Virus record (IMG/VR): IMGVR_UViG_3300043418_000120
Location: 109,881-173,880 of that record
Strand: one strand, 5' to 3'
Source: a virus
Length of the DNA stretch: 64,000 bases
A program made the translations under genes and the position numbers. This document shows positions 18,374 through 28,413 of the stretch, one piece after another (the stretch's first letter is position 1; each line of letters starts with the position of its first letter). The notes beneath the pieces are model-generated. The model worked only from the letters and a program-made list of their open reading frames with translations, ran no database searches and was not told the DNA's origin.

Positions 18374-18436
18374 TAGGATAGGTTCTGCAAATAACACTGC
18401 TAACTTTGGATGTCTAGCGACAAAAACTATCCTGTT
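18374..18436 (+). ncRNA. CWGCAA-scaffold ncRNA 1
   Basis: TAGGATAGGTTCTGCAA...AACTATCCTGTT terminal stem. Confidence 0.65.
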
Positions 18437-18442
18437 GATTTT

Positions 18443-18527
18443 GGAAGTGTAGGAAAATTGGTAACCCCAGGAGACTGTAAATCTTCCGCCTCTGGCATTG
18501 TTGGTTCAAGTCCAACCTCTTCCACCA
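18443..18527 (+). tRNA. tRNA-Tyr(GTA)
   Basis: CT-GTA-AA loop, long variable arm, CCA. Confidence 0.88.
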
Positions 18528-18660
18528 ATTTCGCTGTCGAGAGGCAGTGATACGTTCCCAACATTAGGGTTGGGCGTGTTAAAGTTCGGGTCTTCACCAG
18601 AAGGTCTTTTCGGTTGCCACGATAGAGCAACGGCTAAAGTTCGTAATGCCACAAATTCAT

Positions 18661-18736
18661 GCTTCGTTAGCTCAATTGGGAGAGCACTGCACTGTCACTG
18701 CAGAGGTAAGGGGATCGAAACCCCTACGAGGCGCCA
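18661..18736 (+). tRNA. tRNA-Asp(GTC)
   Basis: CT-GTC-AC loop, G73, CCA. Confidence 0.9.
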
Positions 18737-18740
18737 ATTT

Positions 18741-18811
18741 TAGGATGAGTTCTGCAACAAAAATAGAACACCAAACTTTTAATTTGACATGTTCGTCAAA
18801 ATCATCCTGTT
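18741..18811 (+). ncRNA. CWGCAA-scaffold ncRNA 2 with Lys(TTT) anticodon stem-loop
   Basis: TAGGATGAGTTCTGCAA...ATCATCCTGTT; CAAA-CT-TTT-AA-TTTG at 18772-18786. Confidence 0.65.
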
Positions 18812-18817
18812 GTATTT

Positions 18818-18892
18818 GGGGGCAGTAGAGGGCTACGGGTAACCCTTGCAAGGTTGCTGTCTAGATCGGTTCGATACCGACGGTCTCCACCA
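18818..18892 (+). tRNA. atypical tRNA-Ala(TGC)
   Basis: CT-TGC-AA loop, G3.U70, reduced D-arm, CCA. Confidence 0.65.
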
Positions 18893-18979
18893 AGAGCAAA
18901 TAGAAGTCTTGTTTTGATGCATGGCTTCTCAATGTTTGTTAGTTTCAATGGGTGTTATAGAAACTACCACTAATTTTAT

Positions 18980-19054
18980 GCCTTGTTAGCTCAGTGGTAG
19001 AGCTCCCTCCTTACAAGTGGGATGTCGGCGGTTCGAACCCGTCACAAGGTACCA
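18980..19054 (+). tRNA. tRNA-Val(TAC)
   Basis: CT-TAC-AA loop, CCA. Confidence 0.9.
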
Positions 19055-19059
19055 AACAT

Positions 19060-19151
19060 GGAAAGTAATGCAGCTGGGATGGTCCGGCGACCAGCCTTGA
19101 AAACTGGGTTCTCAGAAATGGGATGGGGTTCGACTCCTCTGCTTTCCGCCA
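19060..19151 (+). tRNA. tRNA-Ser(TGA)
   Basis: CT-TGA-AA loop, long variable arm, GCCA. Confidence 0.85.
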
Positions 19152-19156
19152 AAATT

Positions 19157-19231
19157 GCGTTGTAAACTTTGACGATGAAGTCTCGGCTCTTAACCGATGG
19201 GAAGATAGTTTGAATCTATCACGACGCACCA
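19157..19231 (+). tRNA. tRNA-Lys(CTT)
   Basis: CT-CTT-AA loop, CCA; divergent D and T loops. Confidence 0.75.
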
Positions 19232-19293
19232 AAGCCTCGCCATGACACTCGGCGTATAATGAGATAAGTGATGTGTTCCGAAGATTACTTTGG

Positions 19294-19368
19294 GGTGGGT
19301 ATAGTGTAGTGGTAGCACCCAACTCTGTGAAAGTTGTAGTATGGGATCGTTACCCATTATTCACCCCA
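19294..19368 (+). tRNA. tRNA-His(GTG)
   Basis: CT-GTG-AA loop, G-1:C73, T-loop ATCGTTA. Confidence 0.85.
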
Positions 19369-19380
19369 AAGTAATTTTGT

Positions 19381-19456
19381 GCCTCTGTAGTTCAACGGAT
19401 TAGAATACGGTGCTACGAACGCTGAGACGGGAGTTCGATTCTCTCCAGAGGTACCA
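19381..19456 (+). tRNA. tRNA-Arg(ACG)
   Basis: CT-ACG-AA loop, CCA. Confidence 0.9.
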
Positions 19457-19467
19457 AAAAGATTTTC

Positions 19468-19541
19468 GCCCTATTAGTATAATGGCATTACACCTGTTTT
19501 GTAATCAGGTTACGGCAGTTCGATTCTGTCATGGGGCACCA
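19468..19541 (+). tRNA. tRNA-Thr(TGT)
   Basis: TT-TGT-AA loop, CCA. Confidence 0.85.
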
Positions 19542-19550
19542 GTTGACCAT

Positions 19551-19671
19551 TAGGTTCATTTCAGCAATCAAAAATAATCTTTCTGTAAAAAAGAGGGTCT
19601 GGGTTCGAATCCCAGCGGTGAGTTGGTCTTCACTGTGGTGTAATGGTAGCACGAAAAAAGTTGAACCTGTT
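19551..19671 (+). ncRNA. CWGCAA-scaffold ncRNA 3 carrying a complete circularly permuted tRNA-Tyr mimic
   Basis: TAGGTTCA..CAGCAA; anticodon arm (GTA), T-arm, sealed acceptor stem, D-arm; TGAACCTGTT. Confidence 0.75.
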
Positions 19672-19677
19672 TAACAT

Positions 19678-19752
19678 ATCGCATTCGACTTCAGGTGAGG
19701 TCATCAGCCTTTCAAGCTGACTAGACGGGATCGTTACCCGTATGCGATACCA
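19678..19752 (+). tRNA. tRNA-Glu(TTC), second copy
   Basis: CT-TTC-AA loop, T-loop ATCGTTA, CCA. Confidence 0.82.
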
Positions 19753-19760
19753 AGAATTAT

Positions 19761-19839
19761 TCCGTAGAATCCAAGCAAGGTGCAAGGACGTGACTGTTAA
19801 TCACTGATTAGACTGGTTCGATCCCAGTGTACGGAGCCA
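19761..19839 (+). tRNA. tRNA-Asn(GTT), divergent
   Basis: CT-GTT-AA loop, GCCA; atypical D-arm. Confidence 0.72.
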
Positions 19840-19992
19840 GTATTAGTCGGAGTAATTAACCGAAAAGTAAATAGTAGACGATCTCGCCATCTCGGTCGTC
19901 TTTGCAGTGTATACTGCGTCAGCTTGGTTGCACAAGTTGAGAAACACTGGGGTAAGAGTCCCAATTGATCGATGTGCACTAATTGTTTTCGT

Positions 19993-20068
19993 GGGGGTAT
20001 AGCTCATCTGGTAGAGCAGGTGCTTTGCAAGCATCAGGTGGCGGGTTCGAGTCCTGTTGCCTCCACCA
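19993..20068 (+). tRNA. tRNA-Ala(TGC)
   Basis: canonical cloverleaf, G3.U70. Confidence 0.92.
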
Positions 20069-20077
20069 AGTTTTTAT

Positions 20078-20151
20078 CTGGGTATAAGATAGTGGTAGTC
20101 TCCGAGCCTTGGATGCTTGAAGCGGGAGTTCGATTCTCCATTCCCAGACCA
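20078..20151 (+). tRNA. tRNA-Pro(TGG), divergent
   Basis: CT-TGG-AT loop, C1-G72, ACCA. Confidence 0.75.
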
Positions 20152-20160
20152 ATTTTTTGT

Positions 20161-20238
20161 TGGGGTATCGCCTAGTCTGGCCTAAGGCAACGGTCTTTGA
20201 AATCGTCATCATCAGTTCGAATCTGATTACCCCTGCCA
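20161..20238 (+). tRNA. tRNA-Gln(TTG)
   Basis: CT-TTG-AA loop, GCCA. Confidence 0.88.
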
Positions 20239-20257
20239 GTTTTTAAGGAAATTCAAA

Positions 20258-20311
20258 ATGAAAGTATTAAAACGAAAACCCCGAAAGTGTCGAAAGCGCA
20301 TGGGTCTATAG
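20258..20311 (+). CDS. Lys/Arg-rich 17-aa mini-ORF ending inside tRNA-Lys(TTT)
   Basis: SD TAAGGA; MKVLKRKPRKCRKRMGL; stop TAG at tRNA positions 8-10. Confidence 0.4.
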   Translation: MKVLKRKPRKCRKRMGL

Positions 20312-20378
20312 TTTAACGGCAAAAACATCTGGCTTTTAACCAGTAAGACTCTCGGTTCGAATCCGAGTAGACCCACCA
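20302..20378 (+). tRNA. tRNA-Lys(TTT)
   Basis: CT-TTT-AA loop, CCA. Confidence 0.88.
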
Positions 20379-20479
20379 TATAAAAACATACTTGCTGAAG
20401 TTGGTTCAGTTAGACAGGGAGATCCAATTGCCTATGTCGTTGAGTGTGTTTTTATATGGTATATAAGTATATACTACAT

Positions 20480-20554
20480 TCCAGTGTAGCACAGCGGTAG
20501 TGCAGTTGACTGTTAATCAATTGGTCGTTGGTTCGATCCCAGCCACTGGAGCCA
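20480..20554 (+). tRNA. tRNA-Asn(GTT)
   Basis: canonical cloverleaf, GCCA. Confidence 0.92.
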
Positions 20555-20563
20555 AATTTTTAT

Positions 20564-20637
20564 AGCGGGTAGGGTGGTCACCACTCCAGTCTCATAAGCT
20601 CGGAGCATCGGCAGTTCGAATCTGTCACCCGCATCCA
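20564..20637 (+). tRNA. atypical tRNA(CAT), Met/fMet-like
   Basis: CT-CAT-AA loop, A1xA72 mismatch, reduced D-arm, CCA. Confidence 0.6.
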
Positions 20638-20641
20638 TTTT

Positions 20642-20700
20642 TAGGATCCGTCCAGCAAATTACCTAATTCAACTTGTAATTGAAAAATAAGGATCCTGTT
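20642..20700 (+). ncRNA. CWGCAA-scaffold ncRNA 4 with Thr(TGT) anticodon stem-loop
   Basis: TAGGATCCGTCCAGCAA...GGATCCTGTT; TTCAA-CT-TGT-AA-TTGAA at 20668-20684. Confidence 0.7.
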
Positions 20701-20707
20701 GATATTT

Positions 20708-20783
20708 GCCCTTATAGCTCATCTGGTAGAGCAACCGCCTTGTAAGCGGTAGGTGGTCAGTTCGAGTCCGACTGAGGGCACCA
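20708..20783 (+). tRNA. tRNA-Thr(TGT), second copy
   Basis: canonical cloverleaf. Confidence 0.92.
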
Positions 20784-20791
20784 TTTATAAT

Positions 20792-20868
20792 CGGAATGTA
20801 GCGCAGTCTGGTAGCGCACCTCGTTTGGGACGAGGGGGTCCAAGGTTCGAATCCTTGTATTCCGACCA
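20792..20868 (+). tRNA. tRNA-Pro(TGG)
   Basis: TT-TGG-GA loop; canonical. Confidence 0.92.
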
Positions 20869-20885
20869 ACACTTTGAAAGATAAC

Positions 20886-21149
20886 ATGACAACAATTAAC
20901 CCTATTAAGAACAACTTGTACATTGCTCAGAACAAGAAAGAAGATACCACTGAGATGGGCATCATTATTTCTAATGGTCTTGGTAACACTGCCTCTGCGT
21001 ATGTGTTGGCTATTGGTCCTGACATTACAGAATGTAAAGTAGGTGATACAGTTTATGTTGACTGGTCAAAGAGTTACCCAGTAACTATTGACGGTGCGCA
21101 GCGTGCGATGATCAAGATTGATCATGTGATTGCTGTCGTTGAAGAATAA
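20886..21149 (+). CDS. GroES-like co-chaperonin
   Basis: P...L.I, T..GII, VLAIGP, KVGDTV, ..IAVVE pattern. Confidence 0.75.
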   Translation: MTTINPIKNNLYIAQNKKEDTTEMGIIISNGLGNTASAYVLAIGPDITECKVGDTVYVDWSKSYPVTIDGAQRAMIKIDHVIAVVEE

Positions 21150-21150
21150 T

Positions 21151-21226
21151 CTCGCCATGGTCTAACGGATAAGGCAACGGTCTTCTACACCGTCCGATGG
21201 GAGTTCGAATCTCTCTGGCGAGGCCA
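21151..21226 (+). tRNA. tRNA-Arg(TCT)
   Basis: CT-TCT-AC loop, GCCA. Confidence 0.9.
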
Positions 21227-21233
21227 AAGATTT

Positions 21234-21339
21234 TAGGTTAGGTTCTGCAAACAAAATTAGCTGGTTCGATTCCAGCATTATCCACCCAGTCGAAAGACAC
21301 TCGGATGATGTGCCACGGTGGCAATCAAACTAACCTGTT
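21234..21339 (+). ncRNA. CWGCAA-scaffold ncRNA 5 (YrlA-like: T-arm, closed acceptor stem, D-like arm)
   Basis: TAGGTTAGGTTCTGCAA; GCTGG-TTCGATT-CCAGC; ATTATCC/GGATGAT; AACTAACCTGTT. Confidence 0.7.
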
Positions 21340-21348
21340 GTATTATAA

Positions 21349-21425
21349 GCGGATGTGATGGAATTGGTATACGTGTTGGTCTTAGAAGCCAAATTTTGTG
21401 AGTTCGAGTCTCACCATCCGCACCA
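21349..21425 (+). tRNA. tRNA-Leu(TAG), short variable arm
   Basis: CT-TAG-AA loop, CCA. Confidence 0.85.
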
Positions 21426-21436
21426 ATTTTTTTTAT

Positions 21437-21512
21437 GCCTGGATAGCTCAGTTGGTAGAGCGGCAGATTGAAAATCTGCGCGTCGGCGGTTCGATCCCGT
21501 CTCTAGGCACCA
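21437..21512 (+). tRNA. tRNA-Phe(GAA)
   Basis: canonical cloverleaf. Confidence 0.92.
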
Positions 21513-21518
21513 GTTTAT

Positions 21519-21595
21519 TACGGAGTAGTTCCAATTGGCAGAACGGCGGATTCCAAATCCGTTAGTTGGGGGTTCGAGTCCCTCCTCCGTAGCCA
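21519..21595 (+). tRNA. tRNA-Trp(CCA)
   Basis: TT-CCA-AA loop, GCCA. Confidence 0.9.
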
Positions 21596-21601
21596 GATTA
21601 T

Positions 21602-21677
21602 GGTGATGTAGCTCAGTTGGCAGAGCAGCTCCTTCATACGGAGACGGTCGGGAGCTCGGATCTCTCCATCACCACCA
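21602..21677 (+). tRNA. tRNA-Met(CAT), elongator-like
   Basis: TT-CAT-AC loop; variant T-loop CTCGGAT. Confidence 0.82.
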
Positions 21678-21837
21678 AGTTTTGAGATAGACGTTTGGAT
21701 GAGTCCCTTATGTGCTAGTGCCCTATTCTTGAGCATGACACACCAGTAGCGGCATAAGGTTGTTAAACTCTCCTATACGAGACAAGCCCAGCGAGTCCTT
21801 GAGAAAGATAGTTGGAACTCTCAAAAACCTATAATAT

Positions 21838-21911
21838 GCGTGTGTAGTTTAATGGTAAAATCAGACGTTGCCAACGTTTAGTTGAGAGTTCGATTCTCTC
21901 CACCCGCACCA
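21838..21911 (+). tRNA. tRNA-Gly(GCC)
   Basis: TT-GCC-AA loop, CCA. Confidence 0.85.
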
Positions 21912-21923
21912 AACATAGTCATA

Positions 21924-21972
21924 CCCCTACGCAATGTAGGGGCTTTACTTTAATTCAGATTTAAGGTATAAT
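21924..21972 (+). promoter_or_regulatory. palindrome plus sigma70-type promoter
   Basis: CCCCTAC-N5-GTAGGGG then TTTACT-17-TATAAT. Confidence 0.7.
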
Positions 21973-21978
21973 AGAGTT

Positions 21979-22479
21979 ATGACAAAAGAAAACAGATTTA
22001 TTGAAAACGTATCCCGCGATGATGCTCGCAAGGGTTGGCACATGGACGCAGGTCCCAATGCTATGCTGATTCAGATCAGTGACCCAGCAGGTGGATTCCC
22101 CGATCCAACTTACAAGTTCAAAGAGATTCACCAGTTTGAATTCTTGGATGCAGAAGATGGCGATCGTTTCCCTGATGAGTGCATGATTCAAGATGAGCAA
22201 GCTGTTGAGTTGGTTCGCCTTCTGCAACATGCCCTTGATAATGCGATGAACGTAGTTGTTCATTGCCATGCTGGTATCTGTCGTAGCGGAGCAGTGGTTG
22301 AAGTTGGAGTCATGATGGGCTTCACTCCTACTGATCGTTTCCGCCAACCAAACCTTCGCGTAAAGCATCGAATGATGAAAGCCTTGGGATGGACATACGA
22401 CTCTGCCGAGAAGCATAGTTCTACTGGTGGCTACATCTCCAACGATGGGATTTGGTTACCAAACAATTTTGGAGTTTGA
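21979..22479 (+). CDS. CX5R (dual-specificity/tyrosine) phosphatase-like protein
   Basis: VHCHAGICRSG motif. Confidence 0.85.
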   Translation: MTKENRFIENVSRDDARKGWHMDAGPNAMLIQISDPAGGFPDPTYKFKEIHQFEFLDAEDGDRFPDECMIQDEQAVELVRLLQHALDNAMNVVVHCHAGICRSGAVVEVGVMMGFTPTDRFRQPNLRVKHRMMKALGWTYDSAEKHSSTGGYISNDGIWLPNNFGV

Positions 22480-22480
22480 T

Positions 22481-23056
22481 ATGGCTGATGTATTTTTCAC
22501 CAGCGACACGCACTTCGGACACATGGGTGTTTGTAAGTTTATGCGCGACGATGGTGTGACGAAGTTGAGACCATGGGATAGTCCTGAAGAAATGGACGAA
22601 GCCATGGTGAAGATGTGGAATGAAACCGTCAAGCCGACAGACAAAGTTTATCATTTGGGTGACGTAGTCATCAATCGAAAGGCTTTGAAGATTATGTCGC
22701 GTTTGAATGGTGATAAGGTTTTGATCAAGGGAAACCATGACATTTTTAGGTTGGAAGATTACACGGAGCATTTCCGCGATATCCGCGCCTACCATGTCAC
22801 CAATGGTATGATCTTGAGTCATATCCCAGTCCACGAAAGTAACTTGTATCGTTTCGGTACAAACATCCATGGTCATACTCATAGTAACCGTGTGATGACA
22901 ACATCAAGGTTTATGCGTCAAGAAATCATTGACCCACGATACCAATGTGTTTGCGTTGAACAAACAGACTTTAAGCCAATCGCGTTTGAAGATGTTATGC
23001 AACGTATCAAAGATGAAGGTGGTACTGTTGGTTTCAGAACCAAGAGTAACAACTGA
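22481..23056 (+). CDS. calcineurin-like metallophosphoesterase
   Basis: SDTHFGH, LGD, GNHD, SH.P, HGHTH motifs. Confidence 0.9.
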   Translation: MADVFFTSDTHFGHMGVCKFMRDDGVTKLRPWDSPEEMDEAMVKMWNETVKPTDKVYHLGDVVINRKALKIMSRLNGDKVLIKGNHDIFRLEDYTEHFRDIRAYHVTNGMILSHIPVHESNLYRFGTNIHGHTHSNRVMTTSRFMRQEIIDPRYQCVCVEQTDFKPIAFEDVMQRIKDEGGTVGFRTKSNN

Positions 23057-23150
23057 TTTTGCTTGCAAGCTGATCTCGGTGCTTCCGTGCTCCCGAGCGA
23101 GAATAGCTGATATTGTTTCAGCAAGACGGAGCCAAATTTAGGAGAACAGA

Positions 23151-23288
23151 ATGTCGAAAGCAAAAGAGACACTCGAAAAGGCGTACGGCTCTGTTCCCAA
23201 AGAAGTTGGGTTCTATTTCGTAGTGCCCTTCGAGTTTAGAGGTATAAGATTCTATCTTTTGAAAATCAAGAGATGGTTTACAAGATAA
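23151..23288 (+). CDS. small hypothetical protein (45 aa)
   Basis: SD AGGAG; MSKAKETLEKAYGSVPKEVG... Confidence 0.55.
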   Translation: MSKAKETLEKAYGSVPKEVGFYFVVPFEFRGIRFYLLKIKRWFTR

Positions 23289-23290
23289 TT

Positions 23291-23380
23291 GGTGCGGTCC
23301 CATAATGGTATTGGAGCGGTTTGCTAAACCGTCGACTTACGAAAGTAGGTTTCTGAGTTCGAGTCTCAGTCGCACCGCCA
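23291..23380 (+). tRNA. tRNA-Ser(GCT)
   Basis: TT-GCT-AA loop, long variable arm, GCCA. Confidence 0.88.
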
Positions 23381-23385
23381 AGTTT

Positions 23386-23610
23386 TAGGATACATTCAGC
23401 AACACAAAATGCAATGAAAGCCTCGTGTCGGTGGTTCAAATCCATCCCCCTTCACTTACCATACCACCTTGACGGTGATACTCAGAATTTGAAACTCTGC
23501 GGCTAATGGTAAGTTGCGTAACAACCAGTGCCTAAACAAGATAGGAAACGCTGGTGTGGTAAGTGAAGGGGTAGCTCAGTTTGGTAGAGCAGAGTAAAAC
23601 GTATCCTGTT
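23386..23610 (+). ncRNA. CWGCAA-scaffold ncRNA 6 (YrlA-like, greatly extended acceptor stem)
   Basis: TAGGATAC..CAGCAA; T-arm GGTGG-TTCAAAT-CCATC; CCCCTTCACTTACCATACCA/TGGTGTGGTAAGTGAAGGGG; D-arm TAGCTCAGTTTGGTAGAGC; GTATCCTGTT. Confidence 0.75.
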
Positions 23611-23623
23611 GAAAGAGAAAATT

Positions 23624-23860
23624 ATGTGGGAAATTAAATTTGAAAACACAGTGCTGAACGCAAGTCCAACACTGTCTGATGCGATAACTTTTGCGAAAGG
23701 TTATGGTAAGTTCGTTACTATCACTGACGGCACAACAGAGATTGTTGGTGCATTCGGTGTTGCTGCTGTTGAGAATGCGGTTCTACCAGACGGTGAGTCG
23801 TATACTTGGACTATGCGCCGCGACGAAACGCATCGAAGCTGGAAAAAGAAAAGTGTTTAA
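23624..23860 (+). CDS. hypothetical protein
   Basis: ATG 23624; EIVG.FGV and LPDG..Y.W motifs. Confidence 0.65.
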   Translation: MWEIKFENTVLNASPTLSDAITFAKGYGKFVTITDGTTEIVGAFGVAAVENAVLPDGESYTWTMRRDETHRSWKKKSV

Positions 23861-23861
23861 T

Positions 23862-23938
23862 GCGGATGTGATGGAATTGGTATACGTGCTGGCTTCAAAA
23901 GCTAGATTCTGTGGGTTCGAGTCCCACCATCCGCACCA
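23862..23938 (+). tRNA. tRNA-Leu(CAA), short variable arm
   Basis: TT-CAA-AA loop; near-duplicate of the Leu(TAG) body. Confidence 0.85.
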
Positions 23939-23942
23939 AATT

Positions 23943-24017
23943 GGGCTTATAGCTTAATGGTAAAGCAGTCGACTCATAATCGGTTGAGTCTTGGTTCAAT
24001 TCCAAGTGAGCCCACCA
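23943..24017 (+). tRNA. tRNA(CAT), probably Ile2 (lysidine type)
   Basis: CT-CAT-AA loop; GGGCTTA acceptor resembles bacterial Ile2. Confidence 0.75.
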
Positions 24018-24049
24018 AGAAATTAAGGCGATAAATTTTTAAAGAATAT

Positions 24050-24127
24050 GGCTGGATGGCAGAGAGGTCAAATGCAACGGATTGCAAATCCGTAAAGTCG
24101 TCGGTTCAAATCCGACTCCAGCTTCCA
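24050..24127 (+). tRNA. tRNA-Cys(GCA)
   Basis: TT-GCA-AA loop, U73. Confidence 0.9.
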
Positions 24128-24133
24128 AACAAT

Positions 24134-24211
24134 GCGGCAGTAGTGCAATTGGTAGGAGACAAGAGACTTAAACCCTCTACAGTGTGGGTTCGAATCCCAT
24201 CTGCCGCACCA
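24134..24211 (+). tRNA. tRNA-Leu(TAA), short variable arm
   Basis: CT-TAA-AC loop, CCA. Confidence 0.82.
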
Positions 24212-24233
24212 TGGTTTTACAAAGGTGATTGAT

Positions 24234-24716
24234 ATGAAAAGAGAAATCGATATCCAAGAAGTTAAAGCGTTCTTAGAAGACTGCGGTCCCGACACTAAAG
24301 TGTACATCGGCTGCGACTCAGAGCGTTATAAAGTTGGCAACCAATGGTTCGCTGATTACATTCTTGCGGTGGTAGTTCATATCAATGGTAAGAACGGCTG
24401 TAAGATTTTCGGTGCGATCCAAAAGGAAATGGACTACGACAAGAAGTTCAACCGCCCACGTATGCGTCTGATGACAGAAGTGTACAAGATCTCCGACTTG
24501 TACTTGCAACTGGCACAAGAAATCCCTAACGAAATCGAAGTTCACTTGGACATTAACCCAAGCGAAATGCACGGCTCATCATGCGTGGTGAACGAAGCGA
24601 TCGGTTACGTTCGTGGTATGTGTAACGTGATTCCTTTGGTCAAGCCACGCGCGTTCGCAGCTTCATATGCTGCTGACCGTATGAAGGACGTCATGGGTAT
24701 GCAGAAAGCTGCCTGA
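24234..24716 (+). CDS. RNase H-like YkuK (DUF458) family protein
   Basis: YIGCDS, RL..EV, EVHLDIN, KP.AFAAS.AAD motifs. Confidence 0.82.
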   Translation: MKREIDIQEVKAFLEDCGPDTKVYIGCDSERYKVGNQWFADYILAVVVHINGKNGCKIFGAIQKEMDYDKKFNRPRMRLMTEVYKISDLYLQLAQEIPNEIEVHLDINPSEMHGSSCVVNEAIGYVRGMCNVIPLVKPRAFAASYAADRMKDVMGMQKAA

Positions 24717-24898
24717 TGGATCCTAGAAAGATACTTCGCATACAAAAGAAAGCGAAACGTCTAAAGCGCAAGCCGTATCCTTTAACCTATGCTGAAATCA
24801 AATGGTTACTGGATACGGCAATTCTTTTGGTTGACGATCTTAATGTACAACTTGAAGAAGTAACAAGAAAGTGTGAGGAAGAACACCCATGGATGTAG
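24716..24898 (+). CDS. small hypothetical protein
   Basis: TGATG coupling; 60 aa. Confidence 0.5.
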   Translation: MDPRKILRIQKKAKRLKRKPYPLTYAEIKWLLDTAILLVDDLNVQLEEVTRKCEEEHPWM

Positions 24899-26376
24899 TA
24901 ATCCTCAACGATTGTGCAAACCCAGTCGACAAACGGCGAGTCAGCCGTTACATTGGACCGTATAAGATCGCTCACCATTTAAGGCAAGCGGGTTATACGG
25001 TCCAAGTCATTGACTTTGTTGCGTTCATGACAGAAGACGAGGTGCTTAAATACCTTCGCAAGTTTGTTAGCGAAGAAACCTTGATGGTTGCTGTCAGCAC
25101 AACATTCCTTGCACAGCGTATTCATAAACAGTCTGATGGGTTCTGGCGAAGAATGCCAGAGACTATCGTTCGATCTCTTAAGACTATTCGCGCAGAAGTT
25201 TCAAAACCAAAATTCGTTCTGGGTGGTTATTTGGCAGAACATATCGAGGGATTCGGTACGATAGATTATCGTATTACCAGTAATGCAGAAGCTACTGTTG
25301 TTGAACTTGTTGATTATTTGGCGGGTGTTAATGATCAACTACCAACCTATGTGTTGCAAGTTCCGATGTTTGATCCACGAAAGAAATTCGCCAAAGTAAT
25401 CACAGCACCTAAACGCCTTCAGTACAACATTGAGACTGAGAATTTTAAATTCAACATACAAGATTGCATTGTTCCTGGGGAAACCTTGCCTCTTGAGGTG
25501 TCGCGAGGGTGTATTTTTAAGTGCAAATTCTGTCAACATGAGAATATTGGTCGTGGTAAGTTGGACTACTTACGTAGTATGGACTGTATTAAAGAAGAGT
25601 TGATTCACAATTACAACACTTGGGGCACTACACGATACTATATCCTTTGTGATACGTTTAATGACACTGAGTATAAGGTACGTCTATGGTATGATATGAC
25701 CAAGACCTTACCTTTCCAGATTCGTTGGAATTCATATATCCGTGTTGATTTGATTCATCGTTATCCAGAGACAGCTATTCTTTTACAGGACAGCGGTATG
25801 GTTGGCGCTTACCATGGTATTGAATCATTACACTCAAAGGCTTCTTCTATTGTTGGAAAGGCTTGGTCTGGTAAACATGCTAAAGAGTATATCCCAAAAT
25901 TATATCATGATATTTGGGGCGGTAAAGTTCAGCAACATTTGAATTTTATTTGTGGGTTACATCCAGAACCGAGAGAGAGTGTTATGGAAACTGCTGACTG
26001 GTTTATCCAGAACGATTTACACAGCATATTCTTTGAGACTCTTGGTTTAATGGAAAATGGTTACCGCCATCAAAGCGAATTCGAGAGAGACGCCACTAAG
26101 TATGGATACAGTTTCTATACGCATGCGAATGGTGAAAGGCACTGGAAGACCGATTACTGGAATTTTGAAGAGGCAGCCGCGCACGCACTCCTTGCAAATT
26201 CACGTGTCAAACCATACACGAAGTTCTCTGGGTGGAGGACGCTGGCATGTGAGTCTGTAGGTATGTCCATGGAGGACGCTGGAGCCCTTGCCAAGGACTT
26301 CAAATTCAACCTTGAGAAGGAGCTGAACGTTCTTTTTGTTCGGAAATACATGAAACTTTTAGACGAAATCGTATAA
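24889..26376 (+). CDS. B12-binding-type radical SAM protein
   Basis: E.SRGCIFKCKFC (CxxxCxxC), DTFND, GIES; N-terminal Rossmann-like region. Confidence 0.85.
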   Translation: MDVVILNDCANPVDKRRVSRYIGPYKIAHHLRQAGYTVQVIDFVAFMTEDEVLKYLRKFVSEETLMVAVSTTFLAQRIHKQSDGFWRRMPETIVRSLKTIRAEVSKPKFVLGGYLAEHIEGFGTIDYRITSNAEATVVELVDYLAGVNDQLPTYVLQVPMFDPRKKFAKVITAPKRLQYNIETENFKFNIQDCIVPGETLPLEVSRGCIFKCKFCQHENIGRGKLDYLRSMDCIKEELIHNYNTWGTTRYYILCDTFNDTEYKVRLWYDMTKTLPFQIRWNSYIRVDLIHRYPETAILLQDSGMVGAYHGIESLHSKASSIVGKAWSGKHAKEYIPKLYHDIWGGKVQQHLNFICGLHPEPRESVMETADWFIQNDLHSIFFETLGLMENGYRHQSEFERDATKYGYSFYTHANGERHWKTDYWNFEEAAAHALLANSRVKPYTKFSGWRTLACESVGMSMEDAGALAKDFKFNLEKELNVLFVRKYMKLLDEIV

Positions 26377-26412
26377 ATAGTGCTTGACTTTATTGTTGAA
26401 TTAAGGTATAAT
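26372..26412 (+). promoter_or_regulatory. late promoter plus sigma70 promoter for ncRNA 7
   Basis: TATAAATA 26372-26379; TTGACT-17-TATAAT 26384-26412. Confidence 0.8.
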
Positions 26413-26426
26413 TGATACTTGGAAAT

Positions 26427-26694
26427 GGGATGATTACAGCAGCTAACAACTACTGATCTAAGAGTAGCCCCTATACGGAGGAAACGTCGTAAGGCGTCAA
26501 TTTTGGGGATAGGTAAGATACGACTTTTGCATGCTCTTATGCCTCGCAACACCTAGTAGGAGTTGGAAAGTTAGTGCCCGAATGCACACTGAGAGTCCAT
26601 ACTTTGATTGGAATATGCCAGCGAACTGGATGAGTTTGAGTGGTTCAATTGCACTCTGGTTAGATAAACCGAAAATTACAGAACAAACATCCCG
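26427..26694 (+). ncRNA. CWGCA-scaffold ncRNA 7 (long, divergent)
   Basis: GGGATGATTACAGCAG...AACATCCCG; several internal hairpins; own promoter. Confidence 0.55.
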
Positions 26695-26713
26695 ATATTT
26701 TTTGTGAAAGTGC

Positions 26714-26742
26714 TTGACTTTATTCATGAAGTCAGGTATAAT
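26714..26742 (+). promoter_or_regulatory. sigma70-type promoter for ncRNA 8 and the Ro60-like gene
   Basis: TTGACT-17-TATAAT. Confidence 0.8.
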
Positions 26743-26761
26743 TGATAATGTTGAATGAATC

Positions 26762-26928
26762 TAGGATAGGTTCAGCAAACCAAAACCTCACTGGGCTTCA
26801 TGCCTAGTATCGTATGTGGGGATTGGCCAGTTACACGAAAGTCGTAACAGCTCGCTTTAAATAGCAACGATCCTTACAGCTGAGTTTCGTGTTCTCAGTT
26901 GAAACAAAAAGAAGGAAACTATCCTGTT
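26762..26928 (+). ncRNA. CWGCAA-scaffold ncRNA 8, in the leader of the Ro60-like gene
   Basis: TAGGATAGGTTCAGCAA...AACTATCCTGTT, termini nearly identical to ncRNA 1. Confidence 0.7.
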
Positions 26929-26973
26929 GTTTTTAGGCTCAAATCGGAGCCTGTATTTTATGGAGTAATTTGA

Positions 26974-28413
26974 ATGTCTACATTTGTAAACGCAATCGCT
27001 AATCAAGAAGCACGTACTGAGAACGGTATGCTTGCTCGTAAGTCCACAGCTTCGGCTTGTGTTGACCTGTTTTTCAAGGCAGGCGCATCTCGTGGCAAGA
27101 ACATCACTCGCGAATTCACAGCAGCTCTAGTAGAGAACGAAGACGTAGCAATGCGCTTGGCTCTATGGCTTCGTGACGCACGTGGTGGCGCTGGTGAACG
27201 TGAGTTGTTCCGTCAAATCATGGCGCACTTGGAATCTTATCGCCCAGAGTTGGCAGCAAAGCTGTTGGCCAAGGTTCCAGAAGTGGGTCGTTGGGATGAC
27301 TTGTTTGTCTTTAAGACAGAGCCTTTGAAGTCACAAGCCTACACAATGTTGGGCGACGCTCTTCGTGAGAAGAACGGTTTGGCTGCAAAGTGGACACCAC
27401 GTAAGGGTGAGGTCGCTCGCGAAATCCGCGAGTTCTTCGGCATGTCTCCAAAGTTCTACCGTAAGTCCTTGGTCGAAATGACAAAGGTTGTTGAACAAGA
27501 AATGTGCGCAAAGAACTGGGACGAAATCAACTTCTCCCATGTTCCATCCGTGGCGGCTGCTCGTTACAAGAAGGCATTCTTCCGTAACACTCCAGAGTAC
27601 GCGAAGTACGTCGCAGAATTGGTGAAGGATCCAAAGGATCGCGCTATGAATGTGAAGGTAAACGCTGGCGCTGTGTTCCCATACGATGTGTTGAAGGGCT
27701 TGATCGGTTCTTACTCTCGTTTGAACTACAACGCTACTCAAGTAAACCTTGTGCAAGCACAATGGGATGCTATGGAAAACTTCGTTGGTGACGCAAACGT
27801 GTTGCCACTGGTTGACGTATCTGGTTCGATGATGTGTAAGGCAGGTGGTGATGGCTCCCAATCAGCAATATCTTGCCTAGACGTAGCGGTTTCGCTGGGT
27901 CTATACTTGGCCGACAAGAACAAGGGTAAGTTCAAGGATACGTTCCTAACTTTCTCTGGTAACCCAGAGCTCTTGAACTTGAAGGGTAACATCGTTGACA
28001 AGGTCAAGCAAATGTCTTCTTCTAACTGGGGAATGAACACTGACTTGGTGAAGGCAATGGACAAGATCCTGAGTACAGCTAAGAATGGTGGTGTTCCTCA
28101 AGAAGAAATGCCAGAAATGTTGCTGATCCTTTCGGACATGCAATTCGATCAATGTGCTCGTTTCGACGACTCTGCGATGAAGATGATGGCGCGTAAGTTT
28201 GAAGACGCAGGATACGAACTGCCAAAGATCGTGTTCTGGAATCTTAACGCAAAGGACAACGTTCCTGTTAAGTACGACACACGTGGTGTGGCTTTGGTAT
28301 CTGGGTTCAGCCCAGCTATCATGGTGGCGGTTCTAGGTGGCGACACTGATAACTTTACACCAGAAGCAATCATGCTGAAGGCATTGATGAACCCACGTTA
28401 CGATCTAGTGTAA
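26974..28413 (+). CDS. DUF2828-type Ro60/TROVE-like protein (helical domain plus vWA)
   Basis: TENG, DLFF, RD.RGG.GER..FR, GRWDD, AAKW.PR, VPS.A motifs; MIDAS DVSGS..T..SD; IVFWNL, VSGFS. Confidence 0.82.
   Translation: MSTFVNAIANQEARTENGMLARKSTASACVDLFFKAGASRGKNITREFTAALVENEDVAMRLALWLRDARGGAGERELFRQIMAHLESYRPELAAKLLAKVPEVGRWDDLFVFKTEPLKSQAYTMLGDALREKNGLAAKWTPRKGEVAREIREFFGMSPKFYRKSLVEMTKVVEQEMCAKNWDEINFSHVPSVAAARYKKAFFRNTPEYAKYVAELVKDPKDRAMNVKVNAGAVFPYDVLKGLIGSYSRLNYNATQVNLVQAQWDAMENFVGDANVLPLVDVSGSMMCKAGGDGSQSAISCLDVAVSLGLYLADKNKGKFKDTFLTFSGNPELLNLKGNIVDKVKQMSSSNWGMNTDLVKAMDKILSTAKNGGVPQEEMPEMLLILSDMQFDQCARFDDSAMKMMARKFEDAGYELPKIVFWNLNAKDNVPVKYDTRGVALVSGFSPAIMVAVLGGDTDNFTPEAIMLKALMNPRYDLV

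Follow-up and report, generated by a model that had tools for sequence, protein, structure and literature searches.

Small RNAs with a shared handle and tRNA-like cargo beside a DUF2828 gene: a candidate relative of the Ro60/Y RNA particle in and near a phage tRNA array

Introduction

Among the small RNAs encoded next to Ro-type proteins, YrlA RNAs have been reported only beside TROVE-annotated proteins, and carry the motif GNCGAA (Chen et al. 2014, PMC4201824). The Salmonella rsr-yrlBA-rtcBA operon (PMC7790460, PMC4201824) has a layout that is matched by the bacterial DUF2828-RtcB loci described below, and phage phiLo encodes a Ro60 protein with the RNAs Yrl1/2, which follow the same logic of stem, internal loop and motif (PMC12135203). 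Here, we describe eight small RNA elements, each built around a common "handle", and the adjacent gene for a DUF2828 protein. They lie in the terminal 64 kb of a 173,880-bp IMG/VR virus record (IMGVR_UViG_3300043418_000120, positions 109,881 to 173,880), and this whole stretch of 64,000 nucleotides is called the window throughout.

Phage tRNA clusters are known to hold small stable RNAs that are freed by tRNA processing, such as rnaC and rnaD of T4 and RNAI and RNAIII of T5. A handle-type build has been described for the Class I RNAs of Dictyostelium, and was regarded there as restricted to Dictyostelia (Kjellin et al. 2021, PMC7919456). In addition, the Ro60-like gp130 of one Felix O1-type phage, encoded just upstream of the tRNAs of that phage, is reported in a preprint to counter a defence system, and its authors guess that some of these "tRNAs" are Y RNAs (PMC11482910). 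Literature searches on DUF2828, on Ro60 in phages and on decoys and anticodons returned no paper describing the handle RNAs. For DUF2828 itself, no RNA partner or mechanism has been described in the literature, though the family is very common, comprising over 6,000 clusters of sequences at 50% identity.

Results

Eight elements in and near a phage tRNA array share one handle

The window belongs to a T4-like phage, with homologs of gp32 and gp59 at 30.8-33.5 kb, and contains 29 tRNA genes between 17.9 and 24.2 kb. The original prediction, made from the letters of the window alone, proposed eight elements, seven of which would share a stem, a linker, the motif CWGCAA and a closing stem. All eight are present, and are listed here with the adjacent gene and, where one was obtained, the score of our covariance model (CM) R1.

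18374..18436, + strand: element 1, 63 nt; small hairpin cargo; exact motif and closing stem; R1 40.1 bits, E 1e-7
18741..18811, + strand: element 2, 71 nt; Lys-like anticodon stem-loop CUUUUAA and a second hairpin; R1 48.4 bits
19551..19671, + strand: element 3, 121 nt; complete circularly permuted tRNA, from motif, stem and predicted fold
20642..20700, + strand: element 4, 59 nt; Thr-like anticodon stem-loop CUUGUAA; R1 55.1 bits, E 1e-11
21234..21339, + strand: element 5, 106 nt; T arm, acceptor-like hairpin and D-like hairpin; R1 29.4 bits, E 1e-4, this element lying outside the R1 training set
23386..23610, + strand: element 6, 225 nt; T arm, canonical D arm and a long extended acceptor helix around an inserted domain
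26427..26694, + strand: element 7; variant handle GGGATG, ATTA, CAGCAG ... CATCCC, G; multi-hairpin cargo of about 250 nt
26762..26928, + strand: element 8, 167 nt; multi-hairpin cargo; ends 46 nt ahead of the DUF2828 start codon
26974..28413, + strand: gene for the predicted Ro60-fold protein, 479 amino acids; DUF2828 helical ring and DUF7788 von Willebrand factor A (vWA) domain (Pfam)

Seven sites in the window, every one on the + strand, match the 16-nt pattern AGGWTNNNTYCWGCAA exactly, and the 173,880-bp genome contains no others (the same pattern read backwards, as a control, gave 0). In each of the seven, an exact reverse complement of the 7-nt stem, with GTT after it, closes the element 60-225 nt further on; by our own estimate, closure of a 7-mer by chance would occur at about 2% of sites. 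As proposed, the closing stems, which are 7-8 bp long, vary in sequence among the window copies while their pairing is retained. The window elements terminate in CCUGUU. Element 7, which had been singled out as a variant, has orthologs in 11 relatives, and in 8 of these the motif is the canonical CAGCAA. The long-cargo elements 6-8 are missed by R1, and rest on the stem-plus-motif rule and on their orthologs. Each element is predicted to consist of a 7-8 bp helix that joins its ends, 3 nt, an unpaired and invariant CWGCAA, a variable cargo, and an invariant G after the 3' strand.

The cargo falls into three classes: mimics of anticodon stem-loops, tRNA bodies that are circularly permuted, and large multi-hairpin domains. 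The Lys loop of element 2, the Thr loop of element 4, and the permuted bodies of elements 3, 5, and 6 were recovered as had been claimed, whereas element 1 has no canonical 7-nt anticodon loop. The predicted fold of element 3 runs from a Tyr-like anticodon stem-loop through a T arm and a loop-closed acceptor to a D arm, and this design is repeated, with an identical D arm, in an element of E. coli phage wV8 (L089:8403-8532). Elements 1-6 start 4-9 nt past the 3' end of a tRNA, and four of the six stop 6-9 nt ahead of the next one; element 1, for instance, lies 5 nt after tRNA-Ile and 6 nt before tRNA-Tyr.

The adjacent gene encodes a predicted Ro60-fold protein

The product of the open reading frame at 26974-28413 had been described as a helical-plus-vWA protein with a MIDAS (metal ion-dependent adhesion site), and this description holds. 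Besides DUF2828 and DUF7788, it matches PHROG 850 ("RNA-binding protein"), and the MIDAS (DxSxS...T...D) is intact, with D281, S283, S285, T356, and D388 invariant in 132 homologs. An AlphaFold2 model, calculated with 132 diverse homologs as input, reached a predicted local distance difference test (pLDDT) score of 94.2 and a predicted template modelling (pTM) score of 0.92. When this model was searched with Foldseek, the best 12 matches were all Ro60/TROVE proteins, matched over the full length (E 2e-7 to 6e-5), and the next were generic vWA domains only. Alignment to Xenopus Ro60 with VIA-align gave a Z-score of 21.8 over 413 of the 479 residues, at a root-mean-square deviation of 4.1, compared with a Z-score of about 10 for generic vWA domains.

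Sequence searches gave less. The Pfam TROVE model did not match the product, for which DUF7788 and DUF2828 were the only Pfam matches at E<=0.1. A profile search against PDB sequences placed Ro60 first, with a weak score (E 0.02) that covers the vWA part only, and a single-sequence search of the same sequences returned no useful match. By its modelled structure, the DUF2828 protein is a Ro60-fold protein, and one that stands outside the sequence-defined TROVE family because Pfam TROVE fails to match it. Homologs in mycobacteriophages have been annotated as "Ro-like". Of 50,697 phage records, 711 contain DUF2828, among them those of Felix O1-type phages, of mycobacteriophages, and of phages of Listeria, Staphylococcus, Enterococcus, and Campylobacter.

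The handle follows a general rule with interchangeable cargo

Comparison of 80 related IMG/VR loci, in which the DUF2828 protein is 57-88% identical, and of distant phages yielded a general handle rule: a 7-bp stem, 3 nt, CWGCAA, cargo, the complementary stem, and G. When 69 short elements from different lineages were aligned (A3), the only invariant positions were the C, G, C, A, and A of the motif and the 3' G. All seven stem pairs vary on both sides, and 99% of the cells are still paired. Strand asymmetry is a stronger test than this covariation, since the A3 elements were picked for pairing: the 7-bp-stem rule gave 297 matches on the forward strand versus 32 on the reverse strand in 1.24 Mb of IMG/VR loci. 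With just six invariant nucleotides and a freely variable cargo, an identity as ribozyme or riboswitch was rejected.

Across the loci, 266 unique elements were counted, of which 118 are short, 88 mid-size, and 60 long. An anticodon-type loop CUNNNAA occurs in 53 of the 118 short cargos, most commonly as Thr UGU, Lys UUU, or Asn GUU, and a T-loop consensus occurs in 52 of the 88 mid-size cargos. Two further arrangements were noted in single phages. In Bacillus phage vB_BcoS-136, one element (L098:1937-2061) carries a non-permuted tRNA body as cargo (positions 6-65 of the Rfam tRNA model), the acceptor stem being replaced by the handle stem. In Synechococcus phage BUCT-ZZ01, the tRNAs with anticodons CAU and GUU (L001:10583-10698 and L001:10712-10828) carry a near-identical insert of about 41 nt after nucleotide 29, in the anticodon stem. 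It consists of a hairpin and a closed mini-handle (GAATGA ATT CTGCAA TCC TCATTC), so that the handle is attached at the point where the permuted elements are opened. Both of these tRNAs escape ARAGORN, and the second scores 50.7 bits with the Rfam tRNA model.

Handle RNAs accompany DUF2828 in phages, bacteria, and an archaeon

Of 75 relatives, 70 have an element whose end lies no more than 400 nt upstream of the DUF2828 start codon. Between 2 and 8 elements adjoin DUF2828, all of them on the strand of the gene, in BUCT-ZZ01, E. coli phage wV8, Listeria phage LP-125, and mycobacteriophage JoeDirt, and the same holds for Campylobacter phage CP39, Staphylococcus phage 6ec, Enterococcus phage iF6, and Bacillus phage BcoS-136. 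Phage phiM12 has a minimal, cargo-less handle of 36 nt in the leader, 15 nt before the ATG. When R1 was run on the whole records of wV8, JoeDirt, and 6ec, it matched solely beside DUF2828, and it found no match in about 1.4 Mb from seven tRNA-bearing phages without DUF2828 (T4, T5, Sealy, S-H25, Bacillus phage G, Xoo-sp13, and CRP-738). Overall, the handle was present in 10 of 11 phage lineages with DUF2828, counting the phage studied here, versus 0 of 7 without (Fisher p ~2.5e-4 for lineages that were hand-picked). Staphylococcus phage SA1 was left out, as its record is unverified and Felix O1-like.

The same association was found in cellular genomes, for which we sampled 80 loci from bacterial and archaeal assemblies, including a Woesearchaeote, with proteins 32-71% identical. 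At these loci, the handle rule gave 146 forward versus 13 reverse matches, and handle density was 1.08 per kb adjoining DUF2828 versus 0.064 per kb elsewhere. Handles were found at 55 of 79 bacterial or archaeal loci. No protein family but DUF2828 occurred in all 95 neighbourhoods; the ligase RtcB, the next commonest neighbour, was encoded at 18 of 95 loci, often directly downstream and with WYL/WCX regulators upstream. In a Ruminococcus metagenome-assembled genome (MAG; L181:745-6717) and about ten similar loci, two WYL/WCX regulators, six handle RNAs, DUF2828, and RtcB form an operon-like row. In Listeria phage LP-125, a large ROOL-like RNA (L091:3471-4022; 87.4 bits against a threshold of 99.1, E 3e-16) lies 1 kb upstream of DUF2828, and RtcB and another RNA ligase are encoded 3-5 kb downstream of it.

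Elements 7 and 8 have their own putative promoters

The original prediction assigned separate promoters to elements 7 and 8. Matching sites were found upstream of both, and a hairpin follows element 8:

26384..26412, + strand: sigma-70-like promoter of element 7, TTGACT-17-TATAAT, 11/12 consensus positions
26714..26742, + strand: sigma-70-like promoter of element 8, 11/12 consensus positions
26934..26953, + strand: terminator-like hairpin between element 8 and the DUF2828 start codon (26974)

The hairpin, whose stem (AGGCTC/GAGCCT+G) is of the handle type, lacks CAGCAA; it might serve as an attenuator or as a second site of protein binding.

Other features of the locus

Several other genes are set among the RNA elements (21979-26376), encoding a Cys-type dual-specificity phosphatase, a metallophosphoesterase (PHROG 547), an RNase H-like PF04308 protein, and a radical SAM protein of 495 amino acids; these may play a role in RNA end-healing or modification. 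A permuted, two-piece type transfer-messenger RNA (tmRNA) is encoded by the phage at 13158-13546 (RF04321, 146 bits; tag ANESSFLMAA by ARAGORN), and BUCT-ZZ01 likewise has a tmRNA (L001:4737-5137).

Within the array, a tRNA-Sec-like sequence at 19060-19147 scores 33 bits against a threshold of 47, and ARAGORN makes no call there. Further CCA-ended, tRNA-like stretches occupy uncalled gaps at approximately 18817-18893, 19160-19233, and 19762-19840. In several of the phage tRNAs (18208-18368, 19295-19368, and 19678-19752), an unusual T loop, GGATCGTTACC, replaces GGTTCGAATCC. A megablast search of the region against phage records matched the tRNA genes only.

Discussion

A probable Ro60/Y RNA-like particle, with a proposed link to tRNA damage

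These results establish the RNA family and its structure, the Ro60 fold of the protein, and that RNA and protein co-occur across phages, bacteria, and an archaeon. Handle RNAs and DUF2828 protein probably form an undescribed relative of the Ro60/Y RNA particle, one that is most likely tied to tRNA damage. The original prediction had proposed just such a parallel ribonucleoprotein, with DUF2828 as partner of the handle and tRNA mimics in the variable part. Comparative evidence strongly supports this proposal, because the modelled protein has the Ro60 fold, gene and handle co-occur across distant lineages, and no Rfam family explains the elements. As a whole, the reading in which the eight elements are one small non-coding RNA family, with a handle bound by the Ro60-fold protein and a role in tRNA conflicts, is one that we hold with moderate confidence. 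Within it, binding of the handle by the DUF2828 protein is a strong inference. A role in tRNA-damage conflicts, whether as decoy, as repair platform, or as both, is a reasonable reading, based on the anticodon-loop and tRNA-body cargos, the RtcB operons, and the anti-defence phenotype.

In the mechanism we propose, the handle would be where the product of the gene at 26974-28413 binds. Such a particle would be akin to Ro60 with its Y RNAs, the terminal stem and internal-loop motif sitting on the ring and the remainder of the RNA being exposed. Elements 1-6 occupy the places of tRNAs in the array, and would be excised by the same enzymes as process the tRNAs on either side. Elements 7 and 8 would be transcribed from their own promoters, and as element 8 would form the leader of the DUF2828 gene, the protein may control its own synthesis. 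Since the cargo displays parts of tRNAs (anticodon stem-loops, or T arm and D arm with a sealed acceptor), it is tRNA-recognising proteins that the particle would engage. It could act as bait or inhibitor for anticodon nucleases during infection, and/or as a platform with RNA ligases that mend cut tRNAs. The operons with RtcB and WYL regulators in cellular genomes favour the link to RNA repair.

Several observations weigh against this reading. Vibrio phage nt-1 has DUF2828, and its leader contains only an unclosed ACAGCAA; 24 of the 79 cellular loci gave no match under the strict rule. The compared phage lineages were hand-picked, and the choice of A3 elements for their pairing weakens the covariation counts. 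The phage studied here has no RtcB in its own genome, and its Rnl2-type ligase is encoded at a distance from the locus. Bas63 gp130 counters ppl, which the authors suggest degrades DNA, not tRNA (PMC11482910); gp130 is the presumed DUF2828 ortholog, on the basis of its description in that paper and of the presence of the gene in 251 Felix O1-type records. Class I RNAs are bound directly by the protein Rnp1A, which has an RNA recognition motif (RRM), so that another binder is possible (PMC7919456). Finally, the accumulation of the RNAs and their binding by the protein are both predictions.

Alternative explanations

The handle RNAs may be real while their direct partner is another host or phage protein, such as an RRM, La, or Hfq-type protein or an RNA ligase or repair enzyme, with DUF2828 merely co-regulated or part of the same pathway. 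Rnp1A provides a precedent, as it binds RNAs with the same handle architecture (PMC7919456), and RtcB is a frequent neighbour. However, RtcB is found in 18 neighbourhoods and DUF2828 alone in all 95, the pairing spans Mycobacterium, Listeria, Campylobacter, E. coli, and Woesearchaeote hosts that have no single host factor in common, and the DUF2828 protein is predicted to have the fold of a known Y RNA binder. We consider this explanation unlikely.

Less likely again is that the elements act mainly in cis, as operators for self-repression and as signals for the processing or stability of tRNA precursors, and that the cargo has no function in trans. In most relatives an element or a bare motif does lie 17-60 nt ahead of the start codon, the leader of phiM12 contains a cargo-less handle and that of nt-1 the motif ACAGCAA, and the elements are spaced like tRNAs in the array. 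Yet there are up to 8 copies per genome, distant from the gene and with their own promoters, and in JoeDirt and 6ec elements are found downstream of the gene. Cargo types are also kept across relatives, as seen for the Thr, Lys, and Asn loops and for the permuted tRNA design shared with wV8.

That the elements were left behind, as remnants or insertions, by a small mobile or intron-like RNA targeting tRNA genes, and are linked to DUF2828 only by shared residence in tRNA arrays, would fit the two BUCT-ZZ01 tRNAs with their near-identical mini-handle inserts, but is very improbable given that handle RNAs lie beside DUF2828 where there is no tRNA array (JoeDirt, 6ec, and the bacterial WYL-DUF2828-RtcB operons), are absent from the seven tRNA-rich phages without DUF2828, and vary in stem sequence among copies, unlike the products of recent transposition.

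Significance

If the preferred reading of a DUF2828-bound particle is correct, the handle RNAs would supply DUF2828 with an RNA partner, and the Ro60/Y RNA principle would take in a new protein family, one with a new motif for the recognition of RNA. The RNAs would also account for many unannotated gaps and "pseudo-tRNAs" in phage tRNA arrays. Their anticodon-loop cargos suggest a new phage answer to tRNA-cutting defences. Phages of the Felix O1/Bas63 type, in which a Ro60-like gene already has an anti-defence phenotype, would offer a tractable model in E. coli.

Comparison with known systems

At Rfam gathering thresholds, the window and eight cross-lineage loci contained tRNA and tmRNA only, with no family on any handle element. 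The stable RNAs of T4 (rnaC/rnaD) and T5 resemble the elements as small RNAs set in phage tRNA clusters. They were rejected as relatives, as their genomes lack DUF2828 and any match to the handle model.

In Dictyostelium, Class I RNAs (RF01414) have their build in common with the handle RNAs, at about 60 nt, with a short helix uniting the ends and a variable middle. A motif ending in ACAGCAA follows directly on the 5' strand, and the 3' end is CUGU. The RF01414 consensus aligns over its full length to phage elements, and CUUACAGCAA is identical in Staphylococcus phage 6ec; the alignments to element 4 and to the elements of 6ec and an archaeal MAG have CUUACAGCAA, the terminal stem, and a 3' UG in common. 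All scores are below the gathering threshold of 41.5 bits (element 4, 23.5; element 3, 19.2; 6ec, 22.4; archaeal MAG, 32.4), and these sub-threshold matches are confined to handle elements. Elements 1 and 4 (63 and 59 nt) fall within the Class I length range of 42-65 nt, whereas element 2 has 71 nt and elements 3 and 5-8 have 106-268 nt. Class I RNAs also differ in having a eukaryotic upstream promoter element, and no tRNA-like cargo has been reported for them. Three unnamed proteins have been co-purified with one of them, DdR-21.

This likeness challenges the supposed uniqueness of Class I RNAs to social amoebae. Only tentatively, we suggest that handle RNAs and Class I RNAs are one ancient family with DUF2828 as its conserved partner, which would make for a second, nearly universal Ro/Y-type particle. 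If so, the particle would span phages, giant viruses, bacteria, archaea, and eukaryotes, displaying interchangeable tRNA parts to sense, bait, or repair anticodon-loop damage, and the long-unexplained Class I RNAs would gain a protein partner and a function.

A further comparison is with Ro60 and its RNAs. Ro60 binds Y RNA at the outer face of its ring, and takes up the ends of single-stranded RNA in the central hole. The DUF2828 protein shares the ring-plus-vWA fold of Ro60 (Z-score 21.8), and differs from it in that Pfam TROVE does not match. Like Y RNAs and YrlA, the handle RNAs are encoded within a few kb of a Ro-type gene and on the same strand, and as in Y RNAs the 5' and 3' ends form a terminal stem, and a conserved motif lies in an internal loop, on the 5' side. 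The motif itself is different: it is CWGCAA in the handle RNAs, and in Y RNAs and YrlA it is GNCGAA(N)G or a bulged-C Ro-binding helix. The absence of a canonical bulged-C helix had been foreseen in the original prediction. Handle RNAs also occur in many copies per genome, many of them with bare anticodon stem-loops as cargo, for which no counterpart has been described among Y RNAs. The module of T arm, loop-closed acceptor, and D arm found in YrlA (RF02553) is present in elements 3, 5, and 6 only, whereas elements 1, 2, and 4 carry hairpins and elements 7 and 8 other domains.

With the YrlA model (RF02553, threshold 69 bits), no window element reaches even a weak score, and the YrlA matches in the window are artefacts that run across two adjacent tRNAs, off the elements. 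The best YrlA score of any handle element, 37.7 bits (E 9e-5), belongs to one with tRNA-like cargo in a Gammaproteobacteria MAG (L122:3701-3814), the sole overlap seen between the handle RNA and YrlA families. In gene order the two systems meet again: the row of WYL/WCX regulators, handle RNAs, DUF2828, and RtcB, of the type seen in the Ruminococcus MAG, is a cellular counterpart of the Salmonella rsr-yrlBA-rtcBA operon.

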